Source: Escherichia coli
GTDB taxonomy: Bacteria > Pseudomonadota > Gammaproteobacteria > Enterobacterales > Enterobacteriaceae
Strand: one strand, 5' to 3'
Assembly (NCBI RefSeq): GCF_050920415.1
Contig: NZ_CP169309.1
Length of the DNA stretch: 64,000 bases
Below are positions 20,554-38,370 of the stretch, piece by piece (the first letter of the stretch is position 1; each line of letters begins with the position of its first letter). The notes beneath the pieces are model-generated. The model was given only the letters and a program-made list of their open reading frames with translations. It was not told the origin of the DNA and ran no database searches. A program made the position numbers and the translations under genes.

Positions 20554-20723
20554 AATGGCTCACTCAAGCTTGCTCACGATTGATTCCAGTAACAAACCGT
20601 ATTGTGTAATTATTTCTATAGCAGGTCGCTATATAGGTTTGTATACATCGAATGATTTGAAAATCAAAGAGATAGGCAGATTTTCACTCGAAAGTAGTAT
20701 TACGTGTAAGTGAGGAGTAATTA

Positions 20724-20737
20724 TTGTTCGGTATCAA
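20724..20737 (-). promoter_or_regulatory. FNR box of the dmsA promoter (TTGATaccgAACAA, minus-strand reading)
   Basis: Reverse complement of 20724-20737 is ttgataccgaacaa; dmsABC is a known FNR-activated operon. Confidence 0.6.
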
Positions 20738-20747
20738 AGGGAGACAA

Positions 20748-20773
20748 AAAAAGCGCCCGAAGGCGCTTTTTAG
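20748..20773 (-). terminator. rho-independent terminator downstream of serS (bidirectional hairpin)
   Basis: aaagcgcc-cgaa-ggcgcttt hairpin flanked by A-run and T-run. Confidence 0.7.
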
Positions 20774-20791
20774 ATTCAGAAAAATTGGGTA

Positions 20792-35403: not shown

Positions 35404-35444
35404 TTGTTTTACCGCCTGATGGGCGAAGAGAAAGAACGCGTAAA

Positions 35445-35467
35445 AGGTCGGTTTAACCGGCCTTTTT
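35445..35467 (+). terminator. rho-independent terminator downstream of infA
   Basis: aggtcggtt-taa-ccggcct hairpin followed by TTTTTATTTT. Confidence 0.65.
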
Positions 35468-35577
35468 ATTTTGTACGAAGAACGTTGGAAGTATAAGTAC
35501 ATAACTTGTCTCGATGTAGATATACTGCACAACTTGTTTACAGTATGAGCAAACGAGAATTGTCAGTAAAATTCTTC

Positions 35578-35649: not shown

Positions 35650-35737
35650 GGTGAGGTGTCCGAGTGGCTGAAGGAGCACGCCTGGAAAGTGTGTATACGG
35701 CAACGTATCGGGGGTTCGAATCCCCCCCTCACCGCCA
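35650..35737 (+). tRNA. serW: tRNA-Ser (anticodon GGA)
   Basis: GGTGAGGTGTCCGAGTGGCTGAAGGAGCACGCCTGGAAAGTGTG...GGTTCGAATCCCCCCCTCACCGCCA; long variable arm; 88 nt. Confidence 0.95.
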
Positions 35738-35750
35738 TATTTGAAGAAGA

Positions 35751-35779
35751 GCTCGTACGAAAGTACGGGCTTTTTTTCG
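35751..35779 (+). terminator. rho-independent terminator downstream of serW
   Basis: ctcgtac-gaaa-gtacggg hairpin followed by TTTTTTT. Confidence 0.65.
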
Positions 35780-36028
35780 CATTTTATCTGCCTGTACGGC
35801 AGTGAACAAAATTACAAAGCATCAAAACCAGGGAATAGTTTTCTAAGCTGCCTGTACGGCAGTGAACTCAAATACTACACGTCTAGCCCGTTGTTAATAA
35901 AGCAAAACCATCTCATTTTCCTGCTGCCCCCCCCCCCCCCCCCCCTTTTTTATCCTTACCTTTCAGCTGCACTACTTATCAACAACTTACCATCATCATC
36001 AAAAAAAGGGTCTGAACCTCCTCCACCC

Positions 36029-36062
36029 CATAAATAAAAAGTCCGTAACCTCTTTCGAGATT
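36029..36062 (-). terminator. rho-independent terminator downstream of clpA
   Basis: gtccgtaa...ttacggac inverted repeat followed by a T-run on the minus strand. Confidence 0.6.
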
Positions 36063-36093
36063 ACGGACTTCACCAACCTACCTAACAATTAGA

Positions 36094-38370
36094 TTAATGC
36101 GCTGCTTCCGCCTTGTGCTTTTGTGCACTCTGGAATCCGTAAGTCAGCTCATTTTTCTCTTTATCCAGCGCAACCGTCACCTGACCGCCGTCCACCAGCG
36201 AACCAAACAACAGTTCGTTGGCGAGCGGTTTTTTCAGGTTGTCCTGGATGACACGCGCCATCGGACGTGCGCCCATCGCCCGGTCGTAACCTTTCTCGGC
36301 CAGCCAGTTACGCGCTTCCTGGCTCACTTCCAGAGAAACACCTTTCTGATCCAACTGAACCTGCAACTCGACGATGAACTTATCCACCACCTGATGGATC
36401 ACGTCGGTGGAGAGATGATCGAACCAGATAATGTTGTCGAGACGGTTACGGAATTCCGGTGTAAAGATCTTCTTGATCTCTTCCATCGCATCGGTGCTGT
36501 TATCCTGATGGATAAGACCAATCGATTTACGCTCAGTTTCCCGTACCCCGGCATTAGTGGTCATCACCAGCACCACGTTACGGAAGTCCGCTTTGCGTCC
36601 GTTGTTATCGGTCAGCGTACCGTTGTCCATCACCTGCAACAGAATATTGAACACGTCCGGGTGCGCTTTCTCGATTTCGTCCAGCAGCAGCACCGCATGA
36701 GGATGCTTGATGACCGCATCAGTCAGCAAACCGCCCTGATCAAAACCAACGTATCCCGGAGGCGCACCAATCAGACGGCTGACGGTATGGCGTTCCATAT
36801 ACTCGGACATATCAAAGCGTAACAGTTCAATGCCCAGAGCTTTGGAAAGCTGCACCGTCACCTCGGTTTTCCCGACCCCGGTAGGACCAGCAAACAGGAA
36901 CGAACCGACTGGTTTATGTTCGTGACCTAAACCTGCACGCGCCATCTTAATGGCTTCAGTCAGCGCCTCAATGGCTTTATCCTGACCGAAGACCAGCATT
37001 TTCAGGCGATCGCTGAGGTTTTTCAGGGTATCGCGGTCACTCTGAGAAACACTCTTCTCTGGAATGCGCGCAATACGGGCCACCACGGACTCAATATCCG
37101 CCACATTAACGGTTTTCTTGCGTTTGCTTACCGGCATCAGGCGTGCGCGAGCGCCCGCTTCGTCGATAACGTCAATAGCTTTATCCGGCAGATGACGATC
37201 GTTAATGTATTTCACCGCCAGCTCCACCGCAGCACGCACCGCTTTCGCGGTATAACGCACGTCGTGGTGCGCTTCATACTTCGGTTTCAGGCCATTGATG
37301 ATTTGAACAGTTTCTTCGATCGACGGTTCAGTAATATCAATTTTCTGGAAGCGACGCGCCAGAGCACGGTCTTTCTCGAAAATGTTGCTGAACTCCTGAT
37401 AGGTTGTCGAACCAATTACGCGAATTTTACCGCTGGAGAGCAACGGTTTGATCAGGTTAGCCGCATCAACCTGACCACCAGAGGCTGCACCCGCACCGAT
37501 AATGGTGTGGATCTCATCAATAAACAGGATGCTGTTAGTGTCCTGCTCCAGCTGCTTGAGCAACGCTTTAAAACGTTTTTCAAAGTCGCCGCGATATTTT
37601 GTGCCCGCTAACAGAGAACCGATATCGAGAGAGTAAATCGTACAGTCAGCCATCACTTCCGGCACATCGCCCTGAACAATTCGCCAGGCAAGACCTTCCG
37701 CAATCGCGGTTTTGCCGACACCGGATTCCCCCACCAGCAGCGGGTTGTTTTTACGGCGACGGCAGAGAACCTGAATAGCACGCTCCAGCTCCTTCTCACG
37801 ACCAATCAGTGGGTCGATTCCGCCCACACGCGCAAGCTGATTCAGGTTCGTCGTGAAATTCTCCATACGTTCCTCCCCACCAGCTTGTTCTTCGCTGTTT
37901 GGCTGGCTGCCAGGATCAGAAGACTGTGTCGGCTCGTCTTTACGCGTGCCATGAGAGATAAAGTTCACCACATCGAGACGGCTGACTTCATGTTTGCGCA
38001 ACAGATATGCCGCCTGCGACTCCTGTTCGCTAAAGATAGCGACCAGAACGTTTGCACCGGTAACCTCATTGCGACCGGAGGACTGGACATGGAAGACCGC
38101 ACGTTGCAGTACACGCTGAAAACTCAGCGTTGGCTGTGTGTCGCGCTCCTCTTCACTGGCAGGCAGAACGGGTGTGGTTTGTTCAATAAAGGCTTCCAGT
38201 TCCTGACGGAGCGCAACCAAATCCACAGAACACGCTTCCAGCGCCTCCCGGGCAGATGGGTTACTGAGCAGCGCCAGTAACAAGTGCTCGACGGTCATAA
38301 ACTCATGACGGTGCTCGCGCGCTCTGGCGAAAGCCATATTTAAACTGAGTTCCAGTTCTTGATTGAGCAT
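36094..38370 (-). CDS. clpA: ATP-dependent Clp protease ATP-binding subunit ClpA
   Basis: Start [31 protein letters not shown]; two AAA+ modules. Confidence 0.97.

Follow-up and report, generated by a model that had tools for sequence, protein, structure and literature searches.

It has been proposed by Touchon & Rocha that cas-less CRISPR arrays, which they named 'CRISPR3 / anti-CRISPR', inactivate incoming cognate cas genes (PMC2886076). Diez-Villasenor and Almendros call such an array CRISPR4.1-2 and the place that it occupies between clpA and infA the CRISPR-III locus (PMC3903273). As related in a summary from the Mojica group (PMC5972030), Almendros et al. 2016 (Nat Microbiol 1:16081) found orphan arrays to be constitutively expressed and, in strains other than the present one, to block the uptake of I-F systems, with the incoming cas-F DNA being degraded by its own Cas proteins and resident crRNAs serving as guides. 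Complete Escherichia coli I-F loci, as in TW10828, UTI89, and LF82, are organized as CRISPR4.1 - cas1f cas3f csy1-3 cas6f - serW - CRISPR4.2. In TW10828, the order is infA, CRISPR, serW, cas6f-csy3-csy2-csy1-cas3f-cas1f, CRISPR, and clpA, with the CRISPR-Cas parts on the clpA strand. Some strains counted as I-F-positive may be interference-defective, given that the annotation of UTI89 treats csy2 (L007 9518-10441) as a pseudogene carrying an internal stop. In addition, self-targeting spacers and CRISPR autoimmunity have reportedly been described in type I-F systems, for example in Pectobacterium, by Vercoe et al. in 2013.

The locus described here lies between serW and clpA in a 64-kb window of E. 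coli DNA, the window being the whole stretch that was analysed. An earlier note on this DNA had drawn attention to a pair of identical 20-mers, each with an internal hairpin, spaced at 60 bp in the serW-clpA interval and unaccounted for by annotation, and all of these observations hold. The 20-mer CTGCCTGTACGGCAGTGAAC is exact at 35788-35807 and 35848-35867 and has no other copy in the window; just these two sites are recovered even when up to three mismatches are allowed, and shuffled sequences lead to an expectation of 0. Each copy contains a 5-bp stem and 5-nt loop (CTGCC-TGTAC-GGCAG), and for the minus-strand RNA of either repeat the predicted folding energy is -8.6 kcal/mol, in the shape of the Cas6f stem-loop of 5-bp stem, 5-nt loop, and 8-nt 3' tail. 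The real repeat unit is 28 nt long and lies on the minus strand, with the full consensus in one copy and, in the other, an intact first 20 nt (hairpin plus 3' handle) followed on the serW side by 8 diverged nt; the weak similarity that extends past the 20-mer is not significant. The 60-bp period is therefore explained by a 28-nt repeat plus a 32-nt spacer, and the 28 + 32 + 28 nt spacing is extended in sister strains by a third repeat in the same register.

The full copy, GTTCACTGCCGTACAGGCAGCTTAGAAA, is the E. coli/Yersinia type I-F repeat, being identical at 28/28 positions to 'Repeat2' of Touchon & Rocha 2010, Table 1, the consensus published for type I-F (Ypest) arrays of E. coli (PMC2886076). 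Both units were assigned by Rfam scan to RF01317 (CRISPR-DR4) on the minus strand, and the lower score of the second copy, GTTCACTGCCGTACAGGCAGATAAAATG, is what would be expected of a degenerate terminal repeat (Table 1). A conserved leader stands on one side and the degenerate repeat at the opposite end. On sequence grounds, the repeats are thus classed as a type I-F CRISPR array reading, on the minus strand, leader, full repeat, one spacer, and degenerate terminal repeat. RefSeq places no feature under identical sequence in other genomes because two repeats fall under the thresholds of CRISPR callers. The earlier note had counted a conserved, unremarkable, and untranscribed serW-clpA interval across E. 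coli as a point against its proposals, and the element is in fact conserved, the repeat being found there in 5,342 of 5,426 complete E. coli genomes.

Table 1. Features of the serW-clpA interval and its flanks (positions in the 64-kb window).
Feature	Position	Strand	Basis or remark
serW, tRNA-Ser(GGA)	35650..35737	+	ARAGORN, Rfam tRNA
serW intrinsic terminator, abutting the terminal repeat	35742..35779	+	terminator prediction
Terminal degenerate repeat GTTCACTGCCGTACAGGCAGATAAAATG	35780..35807	-	CRISPR-DR4 29.7 bits, under the gathering score of 35
Predicted 60-nt mature crRNA, if Cas6f is supplied	35788..35847	-	Cas6f/Csy4 cleavage rule applied to the sequence
Spacer ACTATTCCCTGGTTTTGATGCTTTGTAATTTT (crRNA sense), 32 nt	35808..35839	-	matches the 3' end of cas6f (csy4)
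Leader-proximal repeat GTTCACTGCCGTACAGGCAGCTTAGAAA	35840..35867	-	exact 28-nt type I-F consensus; CRISPR-DR4 50.1 bits (gathering 35)
CRISPR leader, between clpA terminator and first repeat	35868..36037	-	alignment with TW10828 and K-12
Poly-C tract, 19 nt (poly-G on the array strand), within the leader	35927..35945	.	length varies among relatives
clpA intrinsic terminator, upstream edge of the leader	36038..36071	-	terminator prediction
clpA, flanking gene on the array strand	36094..38370	-	ORF; RefSeq annotation of homologous loci

The surroundings of the array are simple. infA lies upstream of serW, clpA converges on the minus strand and ends at 36094, and the serW-clpA region holds only terminators, array, and leader. 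Between the first repeat and clpA (35868-36093), the sequence is collinear with the TW10828 leader and with K-12, the leader being near-identical both to K-12 and to the flank of the cas1f-adjacent (clpA-side) array in the I-F-positive strain TW10828. On the array strand, a simple scan detected no match to the sigma-70 promoter consensus within the leader. The poly-C run, situated 60-78 nt upstream of the first repeat, has 19 C in the window, 11 in MFDS1022581, 8 in 2017-02-2CC, and 7 in strain 100117, while K-12 has CACCC. Strand slippage or an error in sequencing the homopolymer may account for this length variation, or the run may possibly modulate the activity of the leader, and a 19-nt homopolymer interrupting the leader could impair it. 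Identity of the serW-clpA region to most E. coli reaches just 80-90%, which is attributable to the different spacer and the poly-C expansion rather than to general divergence; the 4 kb flanking the array are 100% identical to strains MFDS1022581 and N96. Elsewhere in the window, Rfam placed two families at gathering level that are unrelated to the array, namely the STnc130 sRNA at 20644-20778 (+; 138.8 bits) and naRNA4, a REP-derived nucleoid-associated RNA, at 63313-63393 (-; 78.4 bits). An sraA match at 35433-35521 reached 30.8 bits against a gathering score of 56 and was ignored as below threshold.

The spacer ACTATTCCCTGGTTTTGATGCTTTGTAATTTT corresponds to the 3' end of cas6f, taking in its last 15 coding nucleotides (five codons), the stop, and the 14 nt that follow. 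In a search of 5,426 complete E. coli genomes, it was matched in 265, including 52 at 32/32 and 199 at 31/32, and among the matches listed nearly all lie under annotated cas6f; the cas6f genes of E. coli I-F systems account for 32/32 matches in about 40 genomes and 31/32 matches in about 200. The TW10828 protospacer (L002 2628-2659, minus strand) is on the cas6f coding strand, has 0 mismatches, and carries CC on its 5' flank, and UTI89 cas6f matches at 31/32 with its single mismatch at the PAM-distal spacer position 26 and the CC PAM kept, so that the 5'-CC of type I-F precedes the protospacer in both strains. All 265 matching genomes have a single place matching the spacer, and the spacer and its cas6f protospacer therefore never co-occur.

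Other sources of the 32 nt were considered. A plasmid or phage origin was rejected, as the plasmid and phage collections gave only partial matches to the spacer at chance level. Matches of 85.7% in RM14723 and Z1323PEC0014 were likewise treated as chance, the RM14723 one adjoining dalD in an unrelated region. The orientation of the spacer and its place near serW resemble the cas6f 3' end in I-F-positive strains, which raised the idea of a deletion scar of cas6f. This idea is contradicted by the exact 32-nt length of the fragment and by the CC PAM ahead of it in the donor; moreover, no repeat lies beside the TW10828 protospacer and the flanks do not align, from which it follows that the fragment is a genuine spacer. 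It thus appears to have been taken from the cas6f 3' end of a cognate I-F system, beside a CC PAM.

A tblastn search with six TW10828 Cas-F proteins detected no I-F cas genes in the 64-kb window, adjacent to the array or elsewhere, and no I-E repeats were found in the window. Since adjacent cas-F genes are lacking, the locus is an orphan array and not a complete CRISPR-Cas system; judging from the closest relatives, cas-F genes are probably absent from the rest of the source genome as well. With I-F repeats between clpA and infA/serW, no cas-F genes in the window, and a spacer that matches cas-F, the array can be assigned to the orphan type I-F CRISPR4.1-2 anti-cas arrays as a rare spacer variant of a described element, sharing every defining feature of the orphan CRISPR4.1-2 / CRISPR3 class that can be judged from sequence. 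The likeness extends over locus, strand, leader, 28-nt repeat, degenerate terminal repeat, and serW-terminator junction, as well as the size of one to two spacers, the cognate I-F cas target with a CC PAM, and the lack of cas-F genes. Only the spacer allele is uncommon: it hits the stop-codon region of cas6f, whereas the targets given by Touchon & Rocha are Cas1, Cas3, and Csy2 (PMC2886076).

Compared with a complete I-F locus, the repeat, the clpA-side leader, and the orientation to clpA are the same, but the window has neither cas genes nor a second array between infA and serW, holds one spacer instead of many, and differs in its terminal-repeat junction and at three positions of serW. The three differences between TW10828 serW (L002 2442-2529) and the allele shared by the window and K-12 include a compensatory G/C swap in the T-stem. 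The terminal repeats of the orphan array and of the two arrays of I-F-positive strains each end in a different stretch of 8 nt (ATAAAATG, TATTCACA, and TTTTCAAA). Taken together, the serW and terminal-repeat differences make the infA-clpA segment of I-F-positive strains look like a separate haplotype. Fusion of the two arrays of such strains was rejected as an origin of the orphan array, as serW would be lost in such an event and no two of the three terminal-repeat junctions are alike. The array resembles the self-targeting described for I-F systems of Pectobacterium in having a correct-PAM spacer against chromosome-type DNA of the same species. The difference is that here array and target never share a genome, so that the targeting would be prospective, directed at incoming DNA, and not autoimmune.

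Sister alleles give some insight into the history of the spacer. K-12 has the same two-repeat, one-spacer layout at the same position with the same serW-terminator junction, but a wholly different 32-nt spacer. About 2,300 genomes carry that spacer at 32/32 or 31/32. Its target is cas1f, to which it matches at 30/32 in LF82 and at 29/32 in TW10828; the PAM is CC, and the mismatches include PAM-proximal positions. The terminal hairpin of K-12, in contrast to that of the window, is broken (-1.4 kcal/mol in the predicted fold), and the K-12 leader lacks the expanded poly-C run. The K-12 allele thus looks decayed by sequence, and the locus can apparently also persist without obvious function. The K-12 anti-cas1 spacer was found at 2,583 places in 2,579 matching genomes, a few genomes holding two and one place being on a plasmid; the extra places could reflect duplication, misassembly, or rare co-occurrence with cas1f. 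Several E. coli 'plasmid' records contain the orphan array and are probably misassigned chromosomal sequence.

The anti-cas6f spacer occurs in an array in just 10 of the 5,426 complete genomes. Across the 88-nt unit, MFDS1022581 and N96 show no difference from the window, and the two inspected of the other eight, 2017-02-2CC and 100117 (L005 and L006), have three repeats and two spacers, with the cas6f spacer leader-proximal and a distal spacer, GCCAACCGAAAGAAAAACTCGATTTTTATACC, that matches csy3 at 30/32 with a CC PAM. Full 32/32 copies of the csy3 spacer occur in 380 genomes; among those listed none is annotated, which is consistent with orphan arrays. A CC PAM accompanies all three anti-cas protospacers (cas6f, csy3, and cas1f); chance alone would give this with a probability of about (1/16)^3, which speaks for production of the anti-cas spacers by the I-F adaptation machinery. 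New CRISPR spacers are inserted at the leader end, and the simplest history is therefore a csy3-only array that gained a cas6f spacer and later lost the csy3 unit. In the window lineage, we infer that this loss came about by repeat-repeat recombination after the cas6f spacer had been gained. The series of csy3, cas6f+csy3, and cas6f-only alleles suggests ongoing turnover of anti-cas spacers.

Given the observed repeat identity, architecture and polarity, shared leader, spacer target and PAM, a window free of cas genes, and the mutually exclusive occurrence of spacer and target, the array is very probably an orphan, cas-less I-F array whose cas6f-derived spacer would block the establishment of I-F systems by making use of their incoming Cas proteins. 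Its source cell, which apparently encodes neither Cas6f nor a Csy complex nor Cas2/3, would leave it inert. Upon entry of an I-F cas operon, the Cas6f of the invader would cut the resident transcript to a 60-nt crRNA, the incoming Csy complex would load this crRNA, and Cas2/3 would degrade the incoming cas6f-bearing DNA, with the outcome that the I-F system fails to establish. Cas6f/Csy4 cuts at the 3' base of the stem, and the predicted crRNA would accordingly consist of an 8-nt 5' handle (CUUAGAAA), the 32-nt spacer, and the 20-nt 3' hairpin of the terminal repeat. All parts for a single crRNA are intact in the window, namely the full first repeat and the terminal-repeat hairpin. The 20-mer seen twice would be exactly the portion of the terminal repeat that such a crRNA needs, and the diverged 8 nt would be dispensable. 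Transcription, processing, and interference by the window array itself would follow the pattern reported for other orphan arrays.

The main rival explanation is a neutral relic, in which an ancient I-F system targeted itself, autoimmunity led to loss of the cas operon, and the remaining scar has no present role. Such cas loss following self-targeting is credited to Diez-Villasenor et al. 2010 by Touchon & Rocha (PMC2886076), and the K-12 allele, with its broken terminal hairpin and seed-region mismatches to extant cas1f, would fit a relic, as would the presence of just two repeats and a leader in which the scan found no consensus promoter. A scar of this kind is nevertheless less easy to reconcile with the maintenance of the repeat at the locus in 5,342 of 5,426 genomes, with a window allele that is intact for one crRNA and whose spacer matches circulating cas6f alleles at 32/32, and with the leader-proximal place of the cas6f spacer in the two-spacer relatives, which indicates its acquisition after the csy3 spacer. 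The terminal junction of the orphan array is also unlike both arrays of I-F-positive strains, and interference has been reported experimentally in the Mojica-group account of orphan arrays (PMC5972030). A relic without function is regarded as improbable for the window allele, though it keeps some weight.

Two further readings, the first of them raised in the earlier note, fare considerably worse. Recombinase arm-type, att, or regulator sites tied to serW as an island integration hotspot were suggested by the adjoining tRNA gene and by direct repeats with a small palindrome. These features are better explained by an exact I-F CRISPR repeat whose intervening 32 nt match cas6f beside a PAM. For an att remnant, the serW 3' 25-mer is single-copy in the 64 kb, leaving no second serW 3' end; there is no integrase context in the window, the 88-nt unit has no phage match, and plasmid matches to the repeat are multi-copy I-F arrays of Legionella, Acinetobacter, and Serratia with 17-31 places per record. 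For a regulator, there is no gene at hand to control, the repeats being enclosed by two convergent terminators. This explanation retains next to no probability. The suggestion of a small structured RNA came closer, as the hairpin corresponds to the I-F stem-loop recognised by Cas6f and the pair encodes one potential crRNA. Solitary repeat units acting as RNA anti-CRISPRs are known in phages, and the two stable hairpins retained in the predicted fold could in principle serve a Cas-independent small regulatory RNA or an anti-CRISPR-like decoy that sequesters incoming Cas6f/Csy proteins. Neither role needs a perfect cas6f-matching spacer with the correct PAM, three independent alleles all target cas genes with CC PAMs, and no Rfam sRNA family fits, which makes a decoy or regulatory RNA very improbable.

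Within the preferred reading of an orphan anti-cas array, a more far-reaching proposal can be put forward tentatively, and we consider it rather unlikely: the array would be a natural record of orphan-array self-updating by primed adaptation, combined with phase-varying expression of anti-cas crRNA through the poly-G run. A lineage carrying an old, mismatched anti-csy3 spacer (30/32 to extant alleles) would have met an incoming I-F system; primed adaptation would have added a perfect anti-cas6f spacer at the leader end, from 656 nt away on the same strand; the invader would have been destroyed, and the older csy3 spacer lost from the lineage later. In addition, the poly-G tract of the leader, which is prone to slippage and measures 7 to 19 nt in sister strains, might subject the anti-cas crRNA to phase-variable expression. 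Almendros et al. reportedly demonstrated primed adaptation by orphan arrays in the laboratory in 2016, and if the self-updating proposal is true, its novelty would be confined to the natural trace and the homopolymer switch.

The repeats next to serW, at first unexplained, thus turn out to be a textbook-level element that usually goes unannotated and that was described in 2010 and studied experimentally in 2016. They illustrate how a genome may employ a CRISPR array to exclude a CRISPR-Cas system, a case that was made in 2010 and tested in 2016. To this picture the present locus adds a rare allele with a perfect, PAM-competent match to circulating cas6f genes, the finding that none of 5,426 complete genomes was found with both the anti-cas6f spacer and its target, and a series of csy3, cas6f+csy3, and cas6f-only alleles.
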